Source of the DNA: a virus
DNA: 64,000 bases
Virus record (IMG/VR): IMGVR_UViG_3300027747_002638
Direction: 5' to 3' (one strand)
In this document: one piece after another, positions 21,812 to 62,565 of the stretch
How the letters are laid out: the number at the start of each line of letters is the position of its first letter
Numbering within the stretch: the stretch's first letter is position 1
Notes under the pieces: generated by a model
Database searches by the model: none
What the model was told of the DNA's origin: nothing
Seen by the model: the letters and a program-made list of their open reading frames with translations, nothing else
Made by a program: the position numbers and the translations under genes

Positions 21812-22186
21812 TTTGTTTTGGTTGTATATAAAAAACACTTTATAACAAAAATAGCCCCGCGGATTTTTTTACTTCTAAGTATATTCATTTGTATTGATTT
21901 TTTATAGATTTAGAAAAAGGGGTAGGGGTATATATAGGAGTATAAATAAAGATAAGATAAAGTATAAGCTATTTATTGTATTTAAATTAGGTATAAATAA
22001 GTAACATATTAAAATAATGTGGAGATTGAAGATAGCCCCCTCCTCTCTCTTTTGAGTTTTAGAGCGAAGTAATTTTTTCAAAAATGGGGTAGCCCATAGG
22101 CGAACTCAAACCTAGAAACACAGGCTAGGGATCTATATAAAAAATAAAAAACACAGAAAAAATGGGGTGGGGGTTTAGCGCTTTCT

Positions 22187-22213
22187 CTAAGTCGTTGACT
22201 ATCAATGAAATTT
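22187..22213. repeat. Lone 27-bp palindrome (half element)
   Basis: ctaagtcgttgactatcaatgaaattt, directly upstream of a sigma70-like promoter. Confidence 0.8.
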
Positions 22214-22262
22214 AACTGAAGAAATATCTTGTGATAATCCTATTCTGTGATAGATTACCTAT

Positions 22263-22412
22263 ATGAAGAAATTAAGCAAATATGAACAACTGATCGCAAA
22301 CCTCAACAAGGCTAGCCAAGACCTTAAGGATGCCTCTACCAAGGCTATCGCTACTCTTGACGCTCACGCCAACAAGGTGGAAGCTATCCATCAGGAAGCG
22401 ATGACCAAATGA
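22263..22412 (+). CDS. Small helical protein, paralog of 23616-23804
   Basis: Manual ORF MKKLSKYEQLIANLNKASQDLKDA...; leaderless after TTGTGA..TAGATT. Confidence 0.7.
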   Translation: MKKLSKYEQLIANLNKASQDLKDASTKAIATLDAHANKVEAIHQEAMTK

Positions 22413-22531
22413 ATCAAATAGAAATCATCCTCACCCTTACCATCGTAACCATTCTTATCGGAATCTACGCTATGGTAACAGCTAAAAAATAACCCTTGAC
22501 GAAACATAAACAGAAAGGCAATATACAACCT

Positions 22532-22951
22532 ATGAAACAAAACCTCAAAATCAGTTACCAAACCTTCGGCGAAAACAATGCTTACCTTCTCGAAGGAAGT
22601 ATCAAACAGATCAATCACTTCTTCAATTCAATATATAATTGGGAAGGAACTAACGGCAAGTTGCACGATATGGGCAACGGCAAAGCGTTTTACTTCTACG
22701 CTCATCCAGATGATGTGATGAAAGCTCTTACTAAAGTTGCGTTGCATAGCTTGGTCAATAAGATTAACGCTAAGGGACGCAAGGGTGGACTGCTTGACCT
22801 TGCCAAGGCCAAAGCACAGAGCATCGTGGATGCTATGGGTCAGACTTGTTTCCTATGGGGTGCAAGTAGCTCCGAGGGATACAGCCTTGGAACTATCAGT
22901 GCAGAGAAACCCTCTGACTACTGCGGTGCAGTCAGCAACGGAAGGGACTAA
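22532..22951 (+). CDS. Hypothetical protein, paralog of 29817-30203
   Basis: Shared YNWxGTNGxL and YSLGTISAEK; start re-assigned to ATG 22532. Confidence 0.75.
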   Translation: MKQNLKISYQTFGENNAYLLEGSIKQINHFFNSIYNWEGTNGKLHDMGNGKAFYFYAHPDDVMKALTKVALHSLVNKINAKGRKGGLLDLAKAKAQSIVDAMGQTCFLWGASSSEGYSLGTISAEKPSDYCGAVSNGRD

Positions 22952-22955
22952 TCCT

Positions 22956-23333
22956 ATGACAGCAGAACTATTCATCGTAGCATTAACAATCCTTGGCGAA
23001 GCTAGGGGTGAAACCTTTGAGGGTATGGCTGGCGTTGCTAGTGTTATACAAACACGCACCATAGAGCGTAAGCAAACGCCTAGCCAAGTGTGCCTGTCAC
23101 CTAAACAATTCAGCTTCTGGAATGGTGGAGTAAGTGAAGCTACCAAGAAGAAGCTACTGGCAACAGCACAAGGTAAGAACGCTCTATACCTTGCTGATCT
23201 AGTCGTCCATAAACAGATGCCAGACATCGTGAGGGGTGCAAACCATTACCACGCCATCAGCGTCGCTCCTAGATGGGCTAGAGATGCAAGGCTAGTGGCT
23301 ACAATACGCAACCACAAGTTTTATAAGTTGTAA
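22956..23333 (+). CDS. Cell wall hydrolase, SleB/Hydrolase_2 family
   Basis: GEARGE..GMAGVASVI..R, PKQFSFWN, GANHYH, NHKFY; start at ATG 22956. Confidence 0.85.
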   Translation: MTAELFIVALTILGEARGETFEGMAGVASVIQTRTIERKQTPSQVCLSPKQFSFWNGGVSEATKKKLLATAQGKNALYLADLVVHKQMPDIVRGANHYHAISVAPRWARDARLVATIRNHKFYKL

Positions 23334-23404
23334 GTAGCTGAATACCAACGACTTGCGAGCGCAGGGACGCACCTTATGTAAGTCCTTTATAATCAGATAC
23401 TTGC
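23330..23404 (+). repeat. 75-bp element copy 1
   Basis: gtaagtagctgaataccaacgacttgc-gagcGCAGGGacgcaccttat-gtaagtcctttataatcagatacttgc. Confidence 0.9.
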
Positions 23405-23414
23405 AAAGATTCTC

Positions 23415-23492
23415 GATCTTCTGACAAAACCTGAATGAACGCAAAAGATCAGGCCTGATCTTGCAACAAAACCTGATGGAACGCTAAAAATC
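23415..23492. repeat. Two 36-bp direct repeats around a perfect 18-bp palindrome
   Basis: gatcttNNNacaaaacctgaNNgaacgc at 23415 and 23457; aagatcaggcctgatctt at 23445-23462. Confidence 0.85.
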
Positions 23493-23566
23493 TAAACCCC
23501 TAACCATTAACGACTTACAAAAGCGACCTCCCTGCAGCTGTAACTCGTTGATGGTGAACGAGATTT
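23492..23566 (-). repeat. 75-bp element copy 2 (reverse)
   Basis: ctaaacccctaaccattaacgacttac-aaaagcgacctCCCTGCagct-gtaactcgttgatggtgaacgagattt. Confidence 0.9.
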
Positions 23567-23615
23567 AAATGAAAAAATATCTTGCAAAATTTCTAAAATG
23601 TGATAAATTAAGAGT

Positions 23616-23804
23616 ATGAAAAGAAAAACAAAATTAGAAATCCTCCTCGGAAATTTAGACAAGGCTTCGGCTGACCTCAAAAAAGCCGTTGAAGAATCCC
23701 AAAAAAGACTCGATGAAAGTTTCGCAAAATACGAACATAAAGTTGAAGTCGCTCATCATAACTCGATGATGGTCAACGAAAAACAAATTGAAGAAATAAT
23801 TTGA
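23616..23804 (+). CDS. Small helical protein, paralog of 22263-22412
   Basis: LLGNLDKASADLKKA versus LIANLNKASQDLKDA. Confidence 0.7.
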   Translation: MKRKTKLEILLGNLDKASADLKKAVEESQKRLDESFAKYEHKVEVAHHNSMMVNEKQIEEII

Positions 23805-23878
23805 CTTTTGCAGGAATTGTGGTAAACTATATACATAAGATAAAAGATAACAAATAACAAAGAAAGAAAAAAAATAAA

Positions 23879-24154
23879 ATGACTCATAGAATGATAAACT
23901 GGAATTTTCAACGAAAACAAATGCGTGAAAATATGCGAAAAAATATGAATGCTTCTGAAGAAGTAATCATAACTAACTCTAACAATACACCAACTTACTT
24001 TGGTAAAATATACCTTTACGAAGGAACTCTAGTAAAAGTTTCTTATAAAACTTCTGCAAATACTGCGGTTGTAACCTTCCTAGAAGGTAAAGATAAAGAT
24101 AAGGTTGGAACTATCAACCTTAATAACGCTAAACTAATAAAGGAAAATAAATAA
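23879..24154 (+). CDS. Hypothetical protein, probable paralog of 24707-24925
   Basis: LVKV...TA...LEGxDKxKxxTIxL shared. Confidence 0.65.
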   Translation: MTHRMINWNFQRKQMRENMRKNMNASEEVIITNSNNTPTYFGKIYLYEGTLVKVSYKTSANTAVVTFLEGKDKDKVGTINLNNAKLIKENK

Positions 24155-24332
24155 ATGAATAACGATAATAAAAAACAATTAACTTCCCAAGAATGGGAAA
24201 TTCAACGCAAAGAAAAAAATCAAGCTCTTTGGGCTAATCGTAAAAAGCGATGGTCTGAATGGAAAAAGAATAATCCTGAAAAGGCTAAAGCTCACGCCTT
24301 ACTAAAGGCAAAACTTAATGGAAAATAAATAA

Positions 24333-24530
24333 ATGAACATTCAACAATTCGAAGAACTCTTAAAGAATCACGATTGGACTTACCAAATGAGTGAAGACTC
24401 ATACTACTATCGTAGGGGTCAAAAACAACTTAAAGAAATTGAAGAAGCTATCGCCCAAGCTGGTGAATCAGAATGGGGCGAAGAATATCAAAACCTATAT
24501 AATCAATATCGTAACAAGTTTGGAGTTTGA
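24333..24530 (+). CDS. Hypothetical phage protein
   Basis: LKNHDWTYQMSED motif. Confidence 0.65.
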   Translation: MNIQQFEELLKNHDWTYQMSEDSYYYRRGQKQLKEIEEAIAQAGESEWGEEYQNLYNQYRNKFGV

Positions 24531-24544
24531 CAAAATTAGTTGAT

Positions 24545-24619
24545 GTAAGTTGTTGGATACCAATGACTTACGACGGCAGGGACCCTTGCGTTGCAAGTCG
24601 TTAATGATCAATGAAATTT
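24545..24619 (+). repeat. 75-bp element copy 3
   Basis: gtaagttgttggataccaatgacttac-gacgGCAGGGacccttgcgtt-gcaagtcgttaatgatcaatgaaattt. Confidence 0.9.
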
Positions 24620-24706
24620 AAATGAAGATTTTTGTTGCGTTTTCTCTGAAATATGCTAAACTATACTTATAACAAGATAAGAAATAACAAAGAAAGAAAA
24701 AATAAA

Positions 24707-24925
24707 ATGATAACAATAAATAAAGAACTAACTACAGATGAAAATACTTTTCGATATGGTCACGAAAGACTACTCGTAAAGGTTTTCCCTTCTACAATCG
24801 GTTGGAAAACTATGACTGCAACTGCTGAAATCCTCGAAGGTGAGGACAAAGGTAAATGGACAACCATTTATCTTCGTAGCGGATTGTATAATGTCGATAC
24901 AGATTCTCTTGTCTGGTATCGCTAA
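24707..24925 (+). CDS. Hypothetical protein, probable paralog of 23879-24154
   Basis: Shared motif and shared A-rich leader aaataacaaagaaagaaaaaataaaATG. Confidence 0.65.
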   Translation: MITINKELTTDENTFRYGHERLLVKVFPSTIGWKTMTATAEILEGEDKGKWTTIYLRSGLYNVDTDSLVWYR

Positions 24926-24953
24926 ATCGTTAATAATCAAAGAGAAAAAAAGT

Positions 24954-24981
24954 TTGACAAAATAAGAAAGTGTGATAGATT
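24954..24981 (+). promoter_or_regulatory. Sigma70-type early promoter (leaderless), representative example
   Basis: TTGACA-16nt-TAGATT with TG extension; ATG 6 nt downstream; lone degenerate palindrome at 24922-24948 upstream. Confidence 0.7.
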
Positions 24982-24987
24982 AAAGGT

Positions 24988-25389
24988 ATGACATACGAAA
25001 AAAGAAAACAAAAAGAAATAGCAACTCAACAAGCCAACAGAGCTGAAAAAGCTAGGCTCACAGCAGAAAAGGCTGAACTTTTCAAAAGTCTCAACATCCA
25101 AATTGGTGACTTCATCGAAATAACAACCTCGAAAGGTAGTGAAGTTTTGTTCGTGGAAGATTCTGCGAATACTTACGACACTTTGCCTTTCCTCAAAAAC
25201 ATTCTTTTCCTCTCATTCAGAGGAATCAATGGTGCTGGCATCGTTGGGATGACTTGTCTCCTCGATGTTGTGGAAGTTAAAAAAGTAAAAGGAAGCATCG
25301 CACTTCTACAAGAAGTTGAACAAGCGATGAAAGTTTCAAACCGAATCTTTCAAAGCTATAACGAAGCTGGAAGTTATAAAGGAGACTAA
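24988..25389 (+). CDS. Hypothetical protein
   Basis: 133 aa ORF after a consensus promoter. Confidence 0.7.
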   Translation: MTYEKRKQKEIATQQANRAEKARLTAEKAELFKSLNIQIGDFIEITTSKGSEVLFVEDSANTYDTLPFLKNILFLSFRGINGAGIVGMTCLLDVVEVKKVKGSIALLQEVEQAMKVSNRIFQSYNEAGSYKGD

Positions 25390-25522
25390 TGAAAAAAATA
25401 CTTTTCAAAATAAATAAAAAAACTTTTCGTCTTGCTGTAAAAAATGGTGAGAAGAAAAACTTTTTGCGTGAAAGATTTTTTTACTACATCTCTGCGAGTT
25501 GTTTGAATCTTAGAGACCTCTT

Positions 25523-25597
25523 GTAAATAACTCACTATCAACGAGTTACGAGCGCAGGGAGGCCCCGCGCGCAAACCCTTGACTATCAACGACTTAC
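25523..25597 (+). repeat. 75-bp element copy 4
   Basis: gtaaataactcactatcaacgagttac-gagcGCAGGGaggccccgcgc-gcaaacccttgactatcaacgacttac. Confidence 0.9.
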
Positions 25598-25901
25598 ATA
25601 AGGCTAAACAGGACACATCATTTTAATGTTATGATTTCCTATTAAAATATTTCGTATTTAGTATTAGGCATTCTTCTATTTGATTTTTTATAAAATAAAA
25701 CTTGTGCTAAAAATAATCTGTGATACATTTAATTTATGACAAACGAAATCACATCCCTAGCGACGGAAACCTGCGAGGAAGCCTATGTGGACGCTAATGC
25801 GTTCTTTGACTACATCAATTCCAATGATGTGGTTAACTCGATGCTCGATGCGTTGAGTGGGGTTTACGATTCGGTCGAAACTATTGTGGAGGTCAAATAA
25901 T

Positions 25902-26165
25902 ATGGACTACAAAGCCTCTCTCAAGGAGTGGATGAGTCAGCACATGCTGTCTCCGTTGGATGTGCGCGACATCCTTAACCAGATGCGCGAGGATGACCGC
26001 GCTATCAAATCCGAAACATCAGACGAGCCAAACGATTCTATGGATGGCGACTTCGACTCTGCTATGGCTTCTGCTGGCCACGGCACTGATGAGGATTACA
26101 ATGGTGGATGTTACCAGATGGAAGACTTTGGTTGGGCTGGTGACGAAAACCTCTGTGGAGAATAA
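25902..26165 (+). CDS. Acidic hypothetical protein
   Basis: MDYKASLKEW...DSMDGDFDSAMASAGHGTDEDY; start re-assigned to the internal Met. Confidence 0.6.
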   Translation: MDYKASLKEWMSQHMLSPLDVRDILNQMREDDRAIKSETSDEPNDSMDGDFDSAMASAGHGTDEDYNGGCYQMEDFGWAGDENLCGE

Positions 26166-26305
26166 TATATGATTGATATATTCGATGACGAAAAAACCCT
26201 AAAAATTTGGGCAAAAAAAATGTTAGATGATCAAGCTATGGAGCGAGCTTTAGAAACTCAAGCAGAACTTGATTCTGACCATATGCGTGATATGGGAGAG
26301 TCTTA

Positions 26306-26380
26306 ATAAGTTGCTAATAGTCAACGACTTACGGCCGCAGGGACGCCGCCGATGTAAATCCTTGATAATCAAAGACTTAC
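26306..26380 (+). repeat. 75-bp element copy 5, at the convergence point of + and - transcription
   Basis: ataagttgctaatagtcaacgacttac-ggccGCAGGGacgccgccgat-gtaaatccttgataatcaaagacttac. Confidence 0.9.
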
Positions 26381-26610
26381 ACCAGCAATTTTTTACATAG
26401 AGGCTCGCCAACCTTCAAAAACTTCGTCAATCTCTCTCTGCTTTTGCACAAAACTTTTGTTTGTATCGAGTGGAGGATTTTCATTATCACCCCACGGATA
26501 AAAACTTTCTAAATTTTCGTTTAATAGTTTTTCTATATTCATTTTGACATTTTGAATGTTAGAGTTAATCCTAATATCACAAGACATAAAAATATTTCCA
26601 TTTAGACATC

Positions 26611-27246
26611 TTAATGCTTTTTATAATCTATTGCAAACTCATTCTTATCCCAACACTTGCGACAATCACCGCACTTGTTCCCTTGTTTAGAAGATGGGCA
26701 GTTAAAGTTTCCTAGCTTGCTCGCACCGCTAACGCACAAGCCAAGGCGTTGTGCAATTCCTACGGGTGCGGGGCCATCCATCATAAGAGCAGACAAACGG
26801 ATGGTAAGATTACTAGGCACTTCTCCACCTTGTTCGATATAGGTTGAGACAAAAGCATATTCACGAGTTGGAAGCCAAAAAGAAATGTGAGGAAGATTCT
26901 TTGCAATCTTCACAATCTTTTCAATATGCCAAACACCTTGCAAGTCTCCTGAATCGTGCCACCTGAAATGTGGATTCTTAACTTTACCAATCAAATAAGT
27001 CATAGCGTCCACCCACAAATCGTTAGTAAGAGAAGCGAAACGCTTTTCCATAGCTTTCTGAACATTGGGGAAAACATAACGCCCTTTAAGAGCATAGCAA
27101 AAAGCACAAATGCTTCCTACAACATTCCGCATTTTTTGCCCGATAAGACAACGTTTTGCGGGCGTTGAGTAAGCATATCCAGGCATCTTCGAGGGTTTTG
27201 AGAGTGTGCCAACAATCTCTTCGGCTTGTTTTTTGTTTTTGAACAT
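26611..27246 (-). CDS. Gp88-like Cys-rich protein
   Basis: SKMPG...C...CAFCYALKG...FRWHDSGD...FWLPTRE...C..CGDCRKCW. Confidence 0.7.
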   Translation of the reverse strand: MFKNKKQAEEIVGTLSKPSKMPGYAYSTPAKRCLIGQKMRNVVGSICAFCYALKGRYVFPNVQKAMEKRFASLTNDLWVDAMTYLIGKVKNPHFRWHDSGDLQGVWHIEKIVKIAKNLPHISFWLPTREYAFVSTYIEQGGEVPSNLTIRLSALMMDGPAPVGIAQRLGLCVSGASKLGNFNCPSSKQGNKCGDCRKCWDKNEFAIDYKKH

Positions 27247-27295
27247 AGAATTAGATTAACACTTTTTTTTCTTGTGACAAGTTTTTTTTACAATT

Positions 27296-27370
27296 AAATC
27301 TCGTTGACTATCAATGACTTACGACGGCAGGGACCCCGCTTGCGTAAGTAGTTAATACTTAAGCAGTTAC
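27296..27370 (+). repeat. 75-bp element copy 6 (overlaps the ardC stop)
   Basis: aaatctcgttgactatcaatgacttac-gacgGCAGGGaccccgcttgc-gtaagtagttaatacttaagcagttac. Confidence 0.9.
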
Positions 27371-28195
27371 AGCTTCTTCTTCTTGAATTTCTTCGCTTTC
27401 TTTTCTATCAACAAAAGCGTCAAATCTTTTTTGTGCTTTGCTAGAAGCTGAGATGATAAAGTTTGTATCTTTTTTTAATACTTCTAACCAATTGGAAAGA
27501 TAGCTGGCAGAATTGTTAAAACATTTTTCAGAATCAATTCCGCAGAAGTTAAGACAAAGACTAGCAAAAATCTCAGCGGTCAATTCTTCTTTGCTATAAT
27601 TCTGAGAACCAAAACCATTCTTAACATTATCGCCTGTGCTTTTATGCATAGCGTGGCCGATCTCATGAAATGCTGTGGAGTAATACTCCTCAACGCTGTT
27701 AAAGTTTTCTTTTGGGGGTAAATCAATCTTATGATCTTCTGGATAGTAACAGGCACGACTGCCACCATACTTAATCTGAATCACGCACTTGTTGATTAAC
27801 TTTTCTGCTTCTTCTACTGGTGAGAAATCCAACTTCTGGACTTCTGGCTGTTTCCACTTCATACCTTCAATATCACTCAAACCAAAAACCTTGTAGAATC
27901 TCATAAGAGGAAAGCCACCTGATTCATCATCTTTCTTTTTTAATAGTTTGTAATAAACTACCATGTGAGACTTAGCGCCTTTTTTGATTTTTCCACCTAG
28001 CTCTTTAATCTGATTAAATGTAAAAAAGAAATCATCAGAAGCTACCATGCGAAGTAAGAATTGATTAATGCCTCGATAACCTTTTTTGGAAACTCCGTTG
28101 CAAAGATCAAAAACTTTCCAAGGCTTCTGCCAAGGAATGACTCCTTTGTTGAGGGCTTCGATGAACTTTTCTGTGATAATTTCGTTTACTTTCAT
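27359..28195 (-). CDS. ardC: ArdC-like antirestriction protein (ssDNA-binding domain + zincin-like domain)
   Basis: GVIPWQKPW...YRGIN...TFNQ..LGG.IKKG; YYSTAFHEIGH...YSKEELTAEI...SASYLSNWL. Confidence 0.88.
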   Translation of the reverse strand: MKVNEIITEKFIEALNKGVIPWQKPWKVFDLCNGVSKKGYRGINQFLLRMVASDDFFFTFNQIKELGGKIKKGAKSHMVVYYKLLKKKDDESGGFPLMRFYKVFGLSDIEGMKWKQPEVQKLDFSPVEEAEKLINKCVIQIKYGGSRACYYPEDHKIDLPPKENFNSVEEYYSTAFHEIGHAMHKSTGDNVKNGFGSQNYSKEELTAEIFASLCLNFCGIDSEKCFNNSASYLSNWLEVLKKDTNFIISASSKAQKRFDAFVDRKESEEIQEEEAVTA

Positions 28196-28234
28196 AGCTT
28201 AAATATATCAGAAATTTGTTTTTTGTCTACATTT

Positions 28235-28309
28235 AAATTTCATTGAGTATCAACGACTTATAGCACAAGAGCCCCTGCTTATGCAAGTGTTTGACTATCA
28301 AAGAGATAA
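28235..28309 (-). repeat. 75-bp element copy 7 (reverse)
   Basis: aaatttcattgagtatcaacgacttat-agcacaagagcCCCTGCttat-gcaagtgtttgactatcaaagagataa. Confidence 0.88.
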
Positions 28310-28347
28310 AAATATTGATTTAAAACCAATATAGTGTAATATAAGTT

Positions 28348-28524
28348 ATGAAGGTTTCTGGTTTACTTGAATCGTCTGCTCTATATAAAAAGTTTGTTGA
28401 AGAGCGAAATGAAATCCTAAAGCACAAATGGCTCGAAAGCGAAAAAGCTGGCCACGATATTGGTTTTGAAAAAGCTCTGTTAGATTGGGTTTTCAATCAC
28501 AGAGAAAAATGGCGTAATAAATAA
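28348..28524 (+). CDS. Small DUF4032-like protein
   Basis: Manual ORF MKVSGLLESSALYKKFVEERNEILKHKWLESEKAGHDIGFEKALLDWVFNHREKWRNK; GTGTAA at 28334. Confidence 0.75.
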   Translation: MKVSGLLESSALYKKFVEERNEILKHKWLESEKAGHDIGFEKALLDWVFNHREKWRNK

Positions 28525-28771
28525 TTCTTCGACCCTCTACGCTCATGATTTCGTAAAGGAATATCCTGCTCCTCTACCGCCTCTGACTCTGGGCGTTGGC
28601 AGGTTCATCCTCTTATGGGAGTTAGTCAGACTCGCCAAGAGAAGTATTGGCGTTCCGTTATATATAATCAATGTTGCCATTGAAAACTTTCCAGAACTGC
28701 AACCTTTCGGTCAACCTTCTCTGATATCGAAGAACTAAAACTATCTTAACATACTTTTGTTTATGTGCAAT

Positions 28772-28803
28772 AAAAAAGGCGAGGTTTTTACGCCTCGCCC
28801 TTT
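28772..28803 (-). terminator. Rho-independent terminator
   Basis: ggcgagg-loop-cctcgcc stem with A6 run on the + strand. Confidence 0.65.
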
Positions 28804-28823
28804 CTATAATGTCTTTCTGTAGT

Positions 28824-29090
28824 TTAAACTGGCGAAAGACCACCAGCGATTCGATCATAGCGGAATTGCTTCACGCCAGAATCCATACGACCAGAAAAGC
28901 AGAAGCTAGTGAATAGCTTGTTCCCTGCCTTGCTGATGGTATGAGAAGAAGGCTTGCTGATGATGTAAGTATAGACATCATTCTTGCCGTAGGGTTTGTA
29001 TTCGATTAAATACCTTTGCCCCAAGAGGAAAAGGACGAAGTGTTTCAGATATGAGGTTGCGTATATGATTGCGTTTTTGATTTTGTTCAT
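28824..29090 (-). CDS. Hypothetical protein
   Basis: 88 aa ending GVKQFRYDRI (WYL/SH3-like ending). Confidence 0.6.
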   Translation of the reverse strand: MNKIKNAIIYATSYLKHFVLFLLGQRYLIEYKPYGKNDVYTYIISKPSSHTISKAGNKLFTSFCFSGRMDSGVKQFRYDRIAGGLSPV

Positions 29091-29139
29091 AGATTAAATA
29101 TACCATACCTTTGTTTTTTCACAAGAAAAATCTTAAATT

Positions 29140-29214
29140 AAATCTCGTTGATGGTCAACGACTTACGCGCGCAGGGACCCGCCTTTTGTAACTACTTAAT
29201 AATCAAATACTTAT
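29140..29214 (+). repeat. 75-bp element copy 8
   Basis: aaatctcgttgatggtcaacgacttac-gcgcGCAGGGacccgcctttt-gtaactacttaataatcaaatacttat. Confidence 0.9.
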
Positions 29215-29655
29215 AATAGTTTAATCTTCTTGTTCTTTCCAATTAGGATGAGCTTTAACCCATTTATGCCAAACGATTTCCAAGCCAGCAAGATGCTTTT
29301 CTATTTCAGCAATAAGCCTTGGATCTTCATCTCGAAGAACCCTCTTCTCAAGTATTTTGCTTATTCTATTTTCGTTTTTCATATCAGTATATATTACAAT
29401 TATTTGTAAAATATTTCAACTATTTATTATATACTGTTAGATATTTAGGAAAATCTATTTTAGATGTGTAATTAGTATTTTGATTAACTCTTGTACTCCA
29501 CCCCAGCAAATCGTTAGCATTAAACATAAAATAAAAAACTCTACGCCAAATTTCTCAAAAACATTTCTCACATAAATAGAATACATTCTATTTTTTATTT
29601 AGAGAAAATATTTCGTAATGTCGCTCTCTTTAGTGCAAGTTTTCATAAAAATTCT

Positions 29656-29728
29656 CGCTCTCGGCAGGATTCAAACCTGCGATCTATTGATTAGAAATCA
29701 ATTGCATTATTCGCTATGCTACGAGAGC
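29656..29728 (-). tRNA. tRNA-Arg(TCT), non-canonical D/T loops
   Basis: GCTCTCG acceptor; ATTGA-TTTCTAA-TCAAT anticodon arm; GCAGG-TTTGAAT-CCTGC T arm. Confidence 0.8.
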
Positions 29729-29737
29729 GATAAAGTT

Positions 29738-29810
29738 TCGCCTAGGTCAGACTCGAACTGACACTTGAACGATTTTAAGTCGTTTGCCTCTGCCATTGGG
29801 CTACTAGGCG
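29738..29810 (-). tRNA. tRNA-Leu(TAA) with short variable loop
   Basis: CGCCTAG acceptor; AACGA-CTTAAAA-TCGTT; 5-nt V loop; GTCAG-TTCGAGT-CTGAC. Confidence 0.85.
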
Positions 29811-29816
29811 GATTGT

Positions 29817-30203
29817 TTAGCTGTCAGTATCTAACTTTTCAGCAGAAATAGTGCCGAGAGAATAGATGTCCTCGACTTGTGCTGTGCGAACAAAATGTTC
29901 GTTTGGAATATTATCAATAGTGTTCTTCACTCGATTCATAGCAACTGCTTTTAATCCACCTTTAGCACCACGGAACTTCTTTCCAAGTTTATCGCTCAAA
30001 CTACTCATAATATACTTAAACATCACTCGCTCCAACTTTTCGAGAGTAATCCAAAAATAAGCAAAGTCATTACTCATCCATTGAAGCTCTCCGTTTGTTC
30101 CACCCCAATTATAGACTCGATTGTGGAACTGCTGAATCTCGTCCTTGTTACCTTTAATTCCAATAACCCAATGTGCTCCGAGGTTTTGTTTCATTAATTT
30201 CAT
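29817..30203 (-). CDS. Hypothetical protein, paralog of 22532-22951
   Basis: YNWGGTNGEL, KGGL, YSLGTISAEK. Confidence 0.75.
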   Translation of the reverse strand: MKLMKQNLGAHWVIGIKGNKDEIQQFHNRVYNWGGTNGELQWMSNDFAYFWITLEKLERVMFKYIMSSLSDKLGKKFRGAKGGLKAVAMNRVKNTIDNIPNEHFVRTAQVEDIYSLGTISAEKLDTDS

Positions 30204-30331
30204 AGTTTATAGTTTATCCTGTTCTTGTTTTTTGTCAATACTTTTATTGTTAAAATACCAATCTATATCTTCTTGAGTTGTTTCTGTATGCTTACTATAA
30301 GAGTTGAGCATCCAATCCGCACAAGGAGAAG

Positions 30332-30403
30332 TGGGCAAGGCTGGACTCGAACCAGCACTAGGAGAATTATGAGTTCTCTGTTTCACCTTTAAACTACTTG
30401 CCC
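30332..30403 (-). tRNA. tRNA with CAT anticodon (Met or Ile2)
   Basis: GGGCAAG acceptor; GAGAA-CTCATAA-TTCTC; GCTGG-TTCGAGT-CCAGC. Confidence 0.85.
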
Positions 30404-30662
30404 CACTTTAGCAGGAAAGCTCGAAGGTTTTGGCACTTGAAAGAACTCTACTGCAAAAGCCTTGGCGTAATTTTCCAAGTCTTTCAGAGAGCAAGTCTCT
30501 TTCGGTGTGCACATGCGGATTGAGGTGTTTAGGATGATGGCTCGGTCTTTACCGAACACATTCACCACATAGAATGGAATTGTTTTGTTTGTCATAGGTT
30601 TAATATACAACAATTAGAGAAATAGTCAATAAAAATAATTCGTTGAATGATAAGGCTTTACA

Positions 30663-30753
30663 TACTAGGGGAAGGATTCGAACCTTCATTACGCTCAAAT
30701 CTAGAGCTTCACGAGTATAAGTCGTGGGTCTTAACCAGTTAGACGACCCTAGC
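30663..30753 (-). tRNA. tRNA with TAT (Ile) anticodon and long variable arm
   Basis: GCTAGGG acceptor; CACGA-CTTATAC-TCGTG; 22-nt V region with GCTC/GAGC stem; GAAGG-TTCGAAT-CCTTC. Confidence 0.85.
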
Positions 30754-30940
30754 AATCAACACCAAGCCGTAGCTCAATGTCAGCCTCCGAAGTTATCCAC
30801 CGATTTTCTTGATGGTAACTTTCGTTCCATCAGGCCAAGAGCGGATGACCTTACGCCAAAACTCCGCTTCTTGCTCGGCATCTTCCATCTTCGAGTGCAT
30901 ATCTTCACTCACACGGACTCCATCTCGCAAAACGATATAC

Positions 30941-31177
30941 TTAAGATTCATTTTCTACCTCCAATGCTACTGCGTTGTCAAACATTGAGCCACCATCTAC
31001 TGCATCACAAATAACGATGTCATTACTGCCATCATCACCAGCATATACAGCTCGTAGTTTTCTTGTTTGACTATGTTCTTTTTTTGTCCATTGACTCTCT
31101 GGAACGCCGAGGACTTGCAGAGCCTCAACTCTCTCTGGTGAAAGTGCTTCACCGCTTACTGCACATTTATATGTCAT
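30941..31177 (-). CDS. Degenerate TraR/DksA-zinc-finger-like protein
   Basis: CAVSGEALSPERVEAL resembles CxxCGExIxxxRLxA but lacks three of the four Cys. Confidence 0.4.
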   Translation of the reverse strand: MTYKCAVSGEALSPERVEALQVLGVPESQWTKKEHSQTRKLRAVYAGDDGSNDIVICDAVDGGSMFDNAVALEVENES

Positions 31178-31184
31178 AATCGGA

Positions 31185-31598
31185 TTATACCGCTAATTGT
31201 TCTGGTGTCAAGTGAATTTCTGCTGGGGGTTCTGGAAGAACATTATTCTTCCGAGGACGGCCACGGCCACGCTTCTCACCATTAGGCATAGTTGCAGTTG
31301 CAACATAAGCTGATAGTTTTTCTTTTAGTTGGATGAATCGTTTGTCTGCATCTTCACGATCAATACAAGTGAATGCCCAATCGCCCCATTGACTATCGCT
31401 AGGATACATTTCAGCAGGAGGCATCTTCACACCTGCAATTTCATATCCATTGTGACGCTTAATAGCAATCACTTCATAGTTAAAAGCTTCGCTGTCATCT
31501 TCATCGAGTTTCTTTTTATAGATAGCAACATCTCCATCACGACCAACCATCGTGAACTTAAATCCTCGACTGGTAAATGTTTCTTCAAGAGTTTTCAA
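31185..31598 (-). CDS. Hypothetical protein with AT-hook
   Basis: KRGRGRPRK near the C-terminus. Confidence 0.65.
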   Translation of the reverse strand: MKTLEETFTSRGFKFTMVGRDGDVAIYKKKLDEDDSEAFNYEVIAIKRHNGYEIAGVKMPPAEMYPSDSQWGDWAFTCIDREDADKRFIQLKEKLSAYVATATMPNGEKRGRGRPRKNNVLPEPPAEIHLTPEQLAV

Positions 31599-31765
31599 TT
31601 TTTACTCCTTTAGGAAGCCACGCTTCCAAAGTCAGACCTTCTCCAATATATCCGACTTGAGTTTCAGTTTTAGTTTTAGGGTCAGTTGCGTATAGTGCGT
31701 AGCCACCCTCCTTTAGTTTTTTGGCTTTAGTGATTTCCATTAGATAATCTTACTATACTTTTAGA

Positions 31766-32107
31766 TTAATTCAAGACAAAAATATCACGATTAATTACTC
31801 CAACCCATTTAGCTTTATATACAGGCTCTAGGGTATCAGAGTAAACAAAGCTATTAAACTTATAAGGATTATATGTTACTTTTCTTTCAGTTTGATCTAC
31901 TGGCCATCCATCGTCTGGTGTGCCACACACAAAAGCGTGAACATTCTTTCTTTGTTCTTTTAATACTCTGTTTCTACCAGCTTGACTCACTCTAAACTCA
32001 ACATCTTTCAAAAAGAATTCTGTGCTATGCTCTAATACTTTTCCTCTAAGCATAATAGAAAGACAATGCTTATGTAAATTATAATATACTTTATGCTTTG
32101 CTTTCAT
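31766..32107 (-). CDS. Conserved hypothetical phage early protein
   Basis: YYNLHK...VSQAGRNRVLKEQRKNVHAFV...YNPYK. Confidence 0.75.
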   Translation of the reverse strand: MKAKHKVYYNLHKHCLSIMLRGKVLEHSTEFFLKDVEFRVSQAGRNRVLKEQRKNVHAFVCGTPDDGWPVDQTERKVTYNPYKFNSFVYSDTLEPVYKAKWVGVINRDIFVLN

Positions 32108-32146
32108 CTCATAACTATAACATAAATAATATAAATGTCAAGCTAT

Positions 32147-32221
32147 GTAAACCTTTGATAGATAACGAGTTACAAAAGCGGAACCCCTGCCGTCGCAAGT
32201 GCTTGATAGTCAACGACTTAT
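32147..32221 (-). repeat. 75-bp element copy 9 (reverse)
   Basis: gtaaacctttgatagataacgagttac-aaaagcggaacCCCTGCcgtc-gcaagtgcttgatagtcaacgacttat. Confidence 0.9.
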
Positions 32222-32239
32222 GCATGATACAATAAGTGC

Positions 32240-32270
32240 AAAAAGAAGCGGAGGGTTTTGCCCTCCGCCT
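32240..32270 (-). terminator. Rho-independent terminator of the DUF932 gene
   Basis: gcggaggg-ttttg-ccctccgc with upstream A run. Confidence 0.7.
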
Positions 32271-32291
32271 CTGTTAAAGTTTCGTTTTAGT

Positions 32292-33149
32292 TTAGGCGAC
32301 CAGTTTCAAGAGGTCTTCGTCACGGGTTTTGCCCGAGAAGACTTTGAGCAAGTCAGTGCTGATACGCTCACTGTACTCGTAGCGTTCATCTGCAACATTA
32401 CGAGTTAGGAACTGAGTTGACGCATTGTACAAATTGTACAGGTTGCGATCAGTATCCTCCTCATAAGAAGGATTACGCCACACTGCTTCGATGCCTTCAC
32501 GCACCTTGGCAGAGATGATAGCCTTCTCCTCCAACTTGGTGAGCAAGGTCAAACCCTGCTCATCAGTGATTGCCTTCTGCGCTAACCTGTTAAAGATTGC
32601 TACAGAGGTATCAACACTGGAGACCGCATTAGCCAACGCATCACCAATAAAATCCAGATTGACAGCAAGAGTGTGCCTCTTGGTCATGCTGAACTCCTTG
32701 GTCAACGATTTCATTCCGTTAGTGCAAATCAAACGGAGGAAACCGAGGGTTAATGAGACACGACTGGAGCGGTCATAACTGTTGTTAACAGTCAATCGCA
32801 GTCCGAGAATGTCTCCCTTGGCACGCTTGCCAACTGGCTTCAATTCAGTCTTGAAGTCAGTGAAGTCATAGCTAGCGTAGAAACGAGCACCATCACGAAC
32901 CACAAACTTTTTGGAGTTGTAGTTAGCGAGCATACTGTTCTCCGATAGCGACTCTTCGACCATCGTTACGAGGTCTGCATTCTTCACCACACCATACTGC
33001 TCGGTGCAAACTCCGAGTGTCATGGGTTCGGCGGTGTCACGGCGCACCATGCCGAAGTATCCTGTCCTCTTGCCGTCTGTTGTGAGGAGTGGCTCTTGGT
33101 GTACATCGAAATCGTATACACTTTGAGCGGGTTTTGTTGTTCTAGCCAT
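32292..33149 (-). CDS. DUF932/DUF945-family protein
   Basis: VRRDT...LG...YGVVKN; NSYDRS...RLICTNG; NLYNLYNASTQ. Confidence 0.8.
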   Translation of the reverse strand: MARTTKPAQSVYDFDVHQEPLLTTDGKRTGYFGMVRRDTAEPMTLGVCTEQYGVVKNADLVTMVEESLSENSMLANYNSKKFVVRDGARFYASYDFTDFKTELKPVGKRAKGDILGLRLTVNNSYDRSSRVSLTLGFLRLICTNGMKSLTKEFSMTKRHTLAVNLDFIGDALANAVSSVDTSVAIFNRLAQKAITDEQGLTLLTKLEEKAIISAKVREGIEAVWRNPSYEEDTDRNLYNLYNASTQFLTRNVADERYEYSERISTDLLKVFSGKTRDEDLLKLVA

Positions 33150-33255
33150 ATGTTAATCATACCATACTTTTAACTTATGACAAGAACTTTTTTCGTGTCA
33201 TAAGATTCTGATACTCAAGTACTTGCCAATCCTGTGAAAGTTTTTTTATATTGTT

Positions 33256-33330
33256 GCAAGTGCTTACCTATCAACGACTTACGCGCGCAGGGAGCCCGCT
33301 CACGTAACTATATAATAATCAACTACTTAT
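33256..33330 (+). repeat. 75-bp element copy 10
   Basis: gcaagtgcttacctatcaacgacttac-gcgcGCAGGGagcccgctcac-gtaactatataataatcaactacttat; extra lone palindrome at 33200-33226. Confidence 0.9.
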
Positions 33331-33331
33331 G

Positions 33332-33784
33332 TCAAACTAAATTTAATTTATAATTACCTTTTCTATATTCTCTTACTTTCCTCTTAGCATATAAAGACGC
33401 ATCTACTTCACATAATTTAGCTCTAGTACCCATATTATATTTTCTTATCTTTTTAATGCCATGATAGAACTTATTCTTTTTATATTGATATAAGTGTCTT
33501 AATTCATGAGCAATTAATTCAATTAAACCTTCTTCCCAGCTATATGTTTCTACATTAAGATAGCCTCTTCTGCCTCCAGTATTATAAGGTCTAAGATACT
33601 TGCCATATCTAGGCACACCAATATGTACTCTCATGCTACCCCAAGCCCTGCCATGCCAATTTAATTTAGTATTACCAAAATCTATCTTTCTAATGTCTTT
33701 AAGAAATACGCCATCTGGCATACACCATTTAATAATTTCTTTTAACTTTTCAGAACAATAAGAGGTGCTATTAATTAACTTCAT
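33332..33784 (-). CDS. Zincin-like metallopeptidase domain protein
   Basis: IAHELRHLYQ plus downstream EVDA. Confidence 0.65.
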   Translation of the reverse strand: MKLINSTSYCSEKLKEIIKWCMPDGVFLKDIRKIDFGNTKLNWHGRAWGSMRVHIGVPRYGKYLRPYNTGGRRGYLNVETYSWEEGLIELIAHELRHLYQYKKNKFYHGIKKIRKYNMGTRAKLCEVDASLYAKRKVREYRKGNYKLNLV

Positions 33785-57233: not shown

Positions 57234-57422
57234 TCAAATTTTGTTTTTTTTTGATTTAGAAGGACTTACGACTTTCAATAAACTCCAACTACCATCTTTG
57301 TTATCTTGCCAATCAATCGTATCACCGATTTTCCATCCCATTTTTTTCATTAAAGAATTTGGTAACTCAATGTATTGATAACCATTTTCTTCTTTTACTT
57401 CAATTTTAATAGGGGTTTTCAT
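57234..57422 (-). CDS. AbrB/MazE-like DNA-binding protein
   Basis: YIELPNSLMKKMGWKIGDTIDW. Confidence 0.7.
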   Translation of the reverse strand: MKTPIKIEVKEENGYQYIELPNSLMKKMGWKIGDTIDWQDNKDGSWSLLKVVSPSKSKKNKI

Positions 57423-58006
57423 TATTTTGATATTTTATTCATTACTGAAATATTTTGTAAATTTAATTCTATTATAGCATTATTTACCGCTTGTCCAGCT
57501 TCATCTTCAGTTTTAAAAAAACCTAAATGCTTTTCAATAGTTTTTTGATTTTTGTATTTCGGATAATTTTTTGGTATAGTAACTCTTGCTCTCCAAATTT
57601 TTCCAGTTTTAAGTTTTAATGCTTTCTTGTCTAAATTTACTCCGATATATTTAGAAGATGTTGCTTTTACTCTTTTCCTTCTTTTCCTTCTGTTTTCTTG
57701 CATAGTTAATGGCTTTAAATTATCTATTGTATTATTTAATGGGTTAAAATCTGTATGGTCTATTTCTTCTGGCAAATATCTATGCTTATGATAGAATAAA
57801 ATATTATGCAATAATACTCTAATTATTTTTCCTTTTCTACTATAATTAATTTGAGGATATTTACATCCACCACTTACTTGAGGAATATATGTATGATTAG
57901 TTTTTCTTTTGGTTACTGATTGTTCAGATAAATTAATAAATAATTCTTCATCCATTTTATCTGCACTAGGCCAAAGTTCAAGAACAACTCTAAAATTTTT
58001 TCTCAT
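57422..58006 (-). CDS. HNH-AP2 homing endonuclease
   Basis: IDHTDFNPLNNTIDNL..N; SSKYIGV...WRARV...HLGFFKTEDEA. Confidence 0.85.
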   Translation of the reverse strand: MRKNFRVVLELWPSADKMDEELFINLSEQSVTKRKTNHTYIPQVSGGCKYPQINYSRKGKIIRVLLHNILFYHKHRYLPEEIDHTDFNPLNNTIDNLKPLTMQENRRKRRKRVKATSSKYIGVNLDKKALKLKTGKIWRARVTIPKNYPKYKNQKTIEKHLGFFKTEDEAGQAVNNAIIELNLQNISVMNKISK

Positions 58007-60315: not shown

Positions 60316-60559
60316 AGTAAAAGTATATTACTATTTGTCAAATCTGTCAATACTTTATATGTTATTTGTAAATGTATGTAGCTGAACCATTATGGTTTTT
60401 TAATTCTTTTTTAATCAACGACTTATCTCTTTCATCTGACCAATTTATACTATCAAAGTTTTCCTTAAACCTATTAGAGAAACAATTTCTTGCTTTATCG
60501 CCTTTTCCAGCACCATTATTTGGCCGAGATTGATTCATATTTGGACTTTTTTCATTCAT

Positions 60560-62163: not shown

Positions 62164-62565
62164 TTATATTCTCTGTTCTCTTCCTTTGCCTTTATTTAAA
62201 TTTTTATAAGATTCGGTCAAAGAATGGCAATTTGGGCATAAAACTTGAAGATTATTGATATTATTATTTTTATAATTTCCATCTTTATGATGTACTTCTA
62301 AGGTGCTTTTATTGGTTATTAAATTTTTTTTATCCCACCCACAAAGTTCGCATGAACTATTTACTTTTGATATTAAATAATTTCTAATAAAAGATTTGGT
62401 TTGACCATTTGTTTTGTATCCAAGTTCATCACCATTTAACCATTTTTGTATTTTAAATTGATTTTGATATTTAGATTGACAAATATTATTACAATAAAAT
62501 TTTTCTGGTTTGTTACACTCTTTACTGCAATTTTTGCATTTTCTTCTTGATTTTTTGATGTTCAT
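62164..62565 (-). CDS. HNH endonuclease
   Basis: CELCGW...LEVHHKDGNYKNN...NLQVLCPNCHSLT. Confidence 0.88.
   Translation of the reverse strand: MNIKKSRRKCKNCSKECNKPEKFYCNNICQSKYQNQFKIQKWLNGDELGYKTNGQTKSFIRNYLISKVNSSCELCGWDKKNLITNKSTLEVHHKDGNYKNNNINNLQVLCPNCHSLTESYKNLNKGKGREQRI

Follow-up and report, generated by a model that had tools for sequence, protein, structure and literature searches.

In the bacterial interspersed mosaic elements (BIME) and repetitive IHF-binding palindromic elements (RIP) of enterobacteria, repetitive extragenic palindromic (REP) sequences occur together with a site for integration host factor (IHF); in RIP, GC-rich REP sequences lie on either side of a central IHF site, and copies are scattered over the bacterial chromosome. 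Among phages, the promoter-early stem-loop (PeSL) cassettes of T4-type phages combine one G/C-type stem-loop terminator with a promoter and, at the 3' end, a Shine-Dalgarno sequence with its start codon (Arbiol 2010, PMC2839356; Comeau 2014, PMC4122927). In the IHF site itself, WATCAA begins near the centre, TTR lies four bp beyond, and a proline intercalates at each of two ApA steps nine bp apart (PMC1874591). We analyzed a 64,000-nucleotide stretch of DNA from an uncultured freshwater phage (IMG/VR record IMGVR_UViG_3300027747_002638; the whole stretch is called the window below), in which an island of small genes at 22.2-33.3 kb carries ten copies of a 75-bp double-palindrome element. A literature search by sequence and keyword found no published description of this element, the one sequence match being an unrelated polymerase chain reaction primer.

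The elements, about half of which adjoin sigma70-type early promoters, resemble PeSLs in being short composite regulatory repeats in a hyperplastic region of small accessory genes, next to indels, and close relatives likewise differ by insertions, deletions and displacements beside or inside the repeats. Instead of a stem-loop terminator and a Shine-Dalgarno sequence with start codon at the 3' end, they have two 27-bp AT-rich dyads without pairing selection, a polar GC-rich core and a rigid 48-bp spacing, with mostly leaderless predicted starts and separate terminators, and their carrier is not a T4-type myovirus. They are analogous to PeSLs in behaviour but are not members of that class. With BIME/RIP they share the repeated combination of an extragenic palindrome and an IHF-type site at the ends of transcription units, convergent genes included; unlike in RIP, the IHF-like dyads flank the GC-rich core, an inverted arrangement, and a single phage island holds all the copies.

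We favour, with a probability of about 0.55, the reading that the palindromes bind an architectural protein of the IHF/HU type and that the elements have a double role, bounding early transcription units and offering substrates to the recombination that exchanges cassettes. Judged from sequence comparisons, and leaving the type of protein aside, it is very likely that the element is a boundary module at which protein binds between early transcription units, and also a recombination substrate; the feature is real, conserved and under selection.

All ten elements follow one layout, in which a 12-3-12 palindrome of 27 bp (P1), a 21-bp GC-rich core and a second 12-3-12 palindrome of 27 bp (P2) succeed one another, with the two palindrome centres rigidly 48 bp apart and a core hexamer 4 nt after P1 in 10/10 copies (7 forward, 3 reverse). 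What is conserved in the core is a polar heptamer with GG or CC after it, and the other core positions vary freely. We searched the window with a 21-nt pattern made of the inner arm and the core (at most 2 mismatches), which matched exactly the ten elements (0.00 expected from shuffles), and with a weight matrix of the palindrome, which gave 25 sites, all located at 22187-33304, and none in the shuffled window. These sites are the 20 arms of the full copies and 5 lone palindromes. The starts, layout and polarity given for the ten copies in a preliminary description of this DNA were all reproduced, as were the intervals of 1053, 978, 783, 990, 939, 905, 1109 and 3007 bp between them; the matrix recovered the four lone palindromes named there and added a fifth, at 23758-23784, that had been overlooked. 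The same description placed no full copy elsewhere in the window, which agrees with the pattern and the matrix: outside the island, the matrix gives only one weak half-site, at 60400 (60400-60426), where the inner arm is matched exactly about 98 bp upstream of the start of a UvdE-like gene. We rejected the core heptamer as a genome-wide polar signal of the Chi or FtsK-orienting polar sequence (KOPS) kind, its count outside the elements being as expected.

The palindromes stand in a strict register with promoters. Over all loci, the distance from a palindrome centre to the start of a strong sigma70-type promoter is 19 +/- 1 or 29-30 bp, with no values in between, and these two distance classes are one helical turn apart; echoes at 67 and 77 bp (+48) stem from the distal palindrome. 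Twelve such phased promoters lie in the window. An ATG follows the -10 hexamer by 6 nt in 60 of the 93 cases (all loci), so that the first gene of most early units is predicted to be read from a leaderless mRNA, and the dyad is then centred near -53 or -63. Internal genes of the early units keep Shine-Dalgarno sequences. For 164 elements in distinct contexts, we assigned the promoter to the P1 side in 58, to the P2 side in 21, to both in 7 and to neither in 78. The preliminary option of promoter modules thereby finds support in strict helical phasing for about half of the copies; no promoter adjoins the other half. Parts of the island were recovered as contigs in metatranscriptome runs. On the minus strand at 33307-33335, a near-consensus promoter (11/12 matches) has its -10 hexamer inside P2 of element 33256 and reads through the core towards the DUF932 gene, to which it would give tandem promoters. 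A sigma54 promoter in the core (GG/GC 10 nt apart, consensus TGGCAC / TTGC) was rejected, only 12 of 167 cores coming within 2 mismatches.

Counted from the dyad centre, the invariant bases of each half-site are TCAA at +2 to +5 and TT with a following purine at +10 to +12. Invariant ApA/TpT steps occur twice, between positions 9 and 10 and between positions 18 and 19 of the 27-mer, at a distance of exactly 9 bp. Since these positions fit the published description of the IHF site, with the WATCAA...TTR core and the spacing of the two ApA steps both present, each palindrome is in its sequence a mirror-doubled IHF core. A strict IHF core pattern occurred 31 times in the window against 13 expected, and the 11 occurrences in the island all fall in palindrome arms, in line with the match to the IHF consensus noted earlier for many arms. 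Set beside known IHF sites (the lambda H' site; consensus per PMC1874591), the likeness extends from the core consensus, the ApA steps 9 bp apart and the TT-purine four bp beyond to the A/T tract, which lies on the far side of a canonical site and here replaces the outer part of the promoter-proximal arms. Known IHF sites are asymmetric and single, whereas the palindromes are mirror-doubled, are paired at 48 bp, have extra conserved positions and are repeated about ten times in a kilobase-spaced array. The earlier suggestion of IHF/HU-type sites comes out stronger than it had been argued because the whole dyad geometry fits, beyond the 13-mer alone. IHF or HU is a plausible binder of the palindromes, at about even odds.

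Part of this evidence would equally suit operators of a phage-encoded dimeric or tetrameric regulator, for example an early activator or a shut-off repressor, whose likeness to IHF sites would be coincidental. The half-site conserves G and A in the four "N" positions as well as the final C, beyond the IHF core, and the sites are limited to one island of one phage lineage and stand in strict phase with promoters. However, PHROG and Pfam searches of the open reading frames (ORFs) of the island returned no helix-turn-helix or other DNA-binding family, the four contact blocks 7-8 bp apart would better fit wrapping along the minor groove than a helix-turn-helix dimer, and half of the elements have no promoter. 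We regard such operators as possible, though doubtful.

To follow the elements beyond the window, we used the 21-nt pattern, which matches 85 stretches of IMG/VR contigs, and a hidden Markov model built from the ten window copies, which yielded 227 elements (194 distinct) in about 50 of the 85 stretches, arranged in arrays with 0.8-1.1 kb spacing and mixed orientation. A relative rated complete (171,916 bp), colinear with the window at 75-95% identity, has eleven elements, all in the same 12-kb island and none elsewhere in its genome. In distant phages, with proteins 25-60% identical, the half-site is kept, the elements measure 69-77 bp and the cores are clearer GC hairpins. The 120 loci matching the pattern in bacterial genomes were single chance matches, and full copies were found only in one 1.3-kb contig of a Bdellovibrionota metagenome-assembled genome (two full elements 1.1 kb apart); this contig, probably phage DNA binned there in error, is not long enough to point to a host. 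The element is thus not a host REP or a miniature inverted-repeat transposable element (MITE), and the genome-wide scatter in a host that the preliminary description had held out as the counter-case was not seen.

These data also bear on a possible origin of the copies as selfish mobile DNA, non-autonomous and of the MITE, REPIN or BIME type, that spread within the island. Small size, terminal inverted symmetry, a high copy number, intergenic position and a presence that varies between strains all recall such elements. Yet no target-site duplications were found at the elements, 172 kb of genome hold no copy outside one 12-kb island, the bacterial genomes contribute only the probably phage-derived contig, the register with stop codons and promoters is fixed, and no transposase was found among the ORFs scanned (the scan was not exhaustive). 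We consider this origin very improbable.

Conservation within the elements was then compared with what pairing of the arms would require. Counting Watson-Crick pairs between the arms gave 155 for the window copies and 156 when the partners were shuffled, and covariation on distinct copies from relatives (n=167; 106 after clustering) gave z values of -0.8 to -1.9 for P1 and about 0 for P2, with zero or negative values for both possible long-range pairings; strong mutual information was found between neighbouring columns only. Because they show no compensatory change, the arms are not selected RNA or DNA hairpins. Across 397 alignments of orthologous copies, the fixed contact-like positions are 97-100% identical, and the interspersed positions and loops 50-70%, against 81% for the coding flanks. 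Such position-specific conservation without pairing is what base-specific contacts with double-stranded DNA leave behind, and not what a folded strand would show, and it bears out the selection on protein-DNA geometry proposed earlier.

Hairpins in RNA or single-stranded DNA, whether PeSL-type terminators, RNase processing sites, N4-type hairpin promoters or single-strand promoters of plasmid leading regions, are accordingly highly unlikely. Each palindrome has room for a 12-bp stem and a 3-nt loop, elements occur directly after stop codons, and a terminator scan picks up one palindrome; but only about 65% of stem positions pair on average, there is no U-tract, the canonical terminators stand separately beside the elements, and the elements are oriented without regard to the direction of transcription. 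The core was also examined as a hairpin and rejected in this clade, its stems (3.1 bp against 3.05 bp in shuffles) and minimum free energy (-4.7 against -4.1) being close to shuffled values; with stems no longer than shuffled and no T-run after them, the cores do not have the GC-rich stem and U-tract of an intrinsic terminator.

Relatives were compared for cassette content and order, as had been suggested, and breakpoints fall at the elements. Ends of homology blocks between island variants are 3.6-fold enriched in elements, against 1.6-fold in other intergenic DNA and 0.67-fold in coding DNA. Strain variants, in assembled contigs from other freshwater metagenomes, show a deletion from element 23330 to element 24545 with the register kept, the inverted pair 23330/23492 fused into a single element, the ArdC cassette lost between elements 27296 and 28235, and gene 26169-26306 lost; palindrome-to-palindrome deletions occur at 33200-33330, and there are two promoter-to-promoter junctions. 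The fused state of the inverted pair recurs in the 172-kb relative, where gene 26169-26306 occupies a different slot with an element on each side and its own promoter. Within the 87-bp spacer of the pair (23405-23491) lie a 16-bp palindrome without mismatch and a direct repeat about 19 bp long; the 172-kb relative has neither this spacer nor one element of the pair. Junctions fall inside elements, scattered over their whole length with no fixed crossover point, and homologous recombination between the repeated modules would be the simplest mechanism for the change of cassettes.

Of the earlier option of cassette boundaries, the evolutionary pattern (block ends, element-to-element deletions, a relocated gene) is supported, and site-specific recombination finds no backing. 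That the elements are dedicated recombination sites, integron attC- or lox-like with the asymmetric core as crossover region, is hardly credible: inverted repeats around an asymmetric core, cassettes of about 1 kb and element-to-element deletions that keep the register would suit it, but the same non-exhaustive scan found no integrase or resolvase among the window ORFs, junctions are spread over the element or run from promoter to promoter, cassettes have their own promoters and both orientations, and the core varies freely beyond the heptamer. The preliminary statement that the window holds no recombinase stands to the extent of that scan and has to be qualified by two HNH endonucleases and a RuvB-like ATPase. 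The HNH genes (57422-58006 and 62164-62565) lie in a replication and repair region beside RuvB-like, UvdE, Ogg, ligase, MazG and SET-domain genes.

We propose that each 27-bp palindrome is a duplex DNA site for a dyad-symmetric protein, for which a host DNA-bending protein of the DNABII (IHF/HU) family would be the likeliest candidate. Mirror-doubled IHF cores would impose two sharp bends 48 bp apart, and footprints of 34 bp would leave about 13 bp of the GC-rich core free, with the conserved polar heptamer included; that the core is thereby presented to a factor, as the preliminary description had it, is speculation. The module would form the border between early units, in the order gene stop, sometimes a separate terminator, module and promoter of the next unit. 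As positions -53 and -63 would place the proximal site on the same helix face, a bend or a bound protein could assist RNA polymerase, and the GC-rich core would act as an insulating stretch between the two AT-rich sites. With the same roughly 75 bp recurring at every border, phage or host homologous recombination would find there a place to delete, insert and move cassettes of 1-4 genes.

Several observations weigh against this reading. A DNABII gene was sought in eight related phage records and not found, so that the binder would be a host protein; a terminase search of bacterial genome contigs gave no relatives and no host link. Conservation in the half-site extends to more positions than in the E. 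coli IHF core, which could equally fit a dedicated phage protein. Of the 164 elements, 78 have no phased promoter, one window copy (26306) lies between convergent genes, and duplication of a conserved UP-like spacer may be part of the reason why the spacing in the 29-bp class is constant. Core polarity does not follow gene strand, in a comparison that called strand by ORF length, a measure too coarse for these small genes and with many undecided flanks, and only 70% of cores are uniform in the island frame. Finally, compared with other intergenic DNA, the elements are enriched in breakpoints only about 2.3-fold, and the presence of repeats can bias where an alignment stops.

Table 1. Elements, lone palindromes, predicted phased promoters and predicted terminators of the island, in window coordinates (leaderless starts are predictions).
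Feature	Position	Strand	Context
Full element	23330..23404	+	Starts on stop codon of SleB-like hydrolase gene
Full element	23492..23566	-	Reverse; P1 side towards promoter of ORF 23616-23804
Full element	24545..24619	+	P2 side towards promoter 24635-24662
Full element	25523..25597	+	Overlaps stop codon of ORF 25389-25526; no phased promoter
Full element	26306..26380	+	Between convergent gene ends; no promoter
Full element	27296..27370	+	P1 towards leftward promoter of GP88-like gene; P2 overlaps last ArdC-like codons
Full element	28235..28309	-	Reverse; between divergent genes, one promoter per palindrome
Full element	29140..29214	+	P1 towards leftward promoter of ORF 28824-29090
Full element	32147..32221	-	Reverse; between canonical terminator and promoter of L5 gp82-like gene
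Full element	33256..33330	+	Abuts stop codon of ORF 33332-33784
Lone palindrome	22187..22213		Centre 29 bp upstream of -35 of first island promoter
Lone palindrome	23758..23784		Within 3' end of ORF 23616-23804; 30 bp from promoter at 23801
Lone palindrome	24922..24948		19 bp from promoter at 24954
Lone palindrome	30635..30661		19 bp from leftward promoter at 30629
Lone palindrome	33200..33226		30 bp from leftward promoter of DUF932 gene
Phased sigma70-like promoter	22229..22256	+	Leaderless ATG 22263
Phased promoter	23582..23609	+	Leaderless ATG 23616
Phased promoter	23801..23828	+	With leader; ATG 23879
Phased promoter	24635..24662	+	With leader; ATG 24707
Phased promoter	24954..24981	+	Leaderless ATG 24988
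Phased promoter	27253..27280	-	Leaderless ATG 27246
Phased promoter, ArdC-like gene	28202..28229	-	Leaderless ATG 28195
Phased promoter	28315..28342	+	ATG 28348
Phased promoter	29097..29124	-	Leaderless ATG 29090
Phased promoter	30602..30629	-	Leaderless ATG 30595
Phased promoter, gp82-like gene	32114..32141	-	
Phased promoter, DUF932 gene	33156..33183	-	Leaderless ATG 33149
Canonical intrinsic terminator	28778..28799	+	Separate from elements
GC-rich stem-loop terminator	32247..32270	-	Downstream of DUF932 gene, just before element 32147; read from sequence

The phage encodes a terminase, a ligase, repair enzymes and lectin-like fibre proteins. Its best terminase matches in cultured phages are about 25% identical and a megablast search of the island against cultured phages gave no match, so that it is a phage without a cultured relative. 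The island has a G+C content of 36-40%, against 26-34% (about 29%) outside, and encodes a SleB-like hydrolase, GP88-like, ArdC-like anti-restriction, DUF932 and L5 gp82-like proteins together with many ORFans. ArdC and DUF932 are typical of the leading regions of plasmids and integrative and conjugative elements (ICE), and the raised G+C combined with such plasmid- or ICE-type genes suggests that the cassettes were acquired from sources richer in GC.

Four tRNA genes (Arg-TCT, Leu-TAA, Met-CAT and Ile-TAT) are embedded in the island at 29655-30754, and an Rfam scan of the island returned these four only. In one metagenome variant the sequence passes from one tRNA to another (29712 to 30673) and carries a different tRNA-like insert there. 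Immediately before the island, 370 bp of non-coding DNA (21812-22186) contain three copies (21909, 22076 and 22158) of an A-run followed by a G-rich motif, plus other short repeats; this stretch is a candidate terminus, origin or small RNA locus.

The early and anti-defence islands of phages turn over rapidly, and how their small genes are swapped and expressed immediately after injection is poorly understood outside T4-type phages. Here a rigid, conserved and recognisable module connects the exchange of cassettes with the positions of early promoters and, probably, with a host architectural protein. A broader proposal, which we put forward only tentatively and consider somewhat unlikely as a whole, is that this is a widespread, undescribed nucleoprotein boundary element of phage early regions, common to many uncultured lineages, in which paired mirror-symmetric DNABII sites would fold each border into a double U-turn, expose the polar core to a phage or host factor, set the activity of neighbouring promoters and make the anti-defence island a modular platform on which genes are captured and exchanged. 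Should binding be confirmed, the module would provide a sequence signature for early and anti-defence islands in uncultured phages and a handle on their regulation, as well as a concrete model of how such islands acquire genes of foreign composition.

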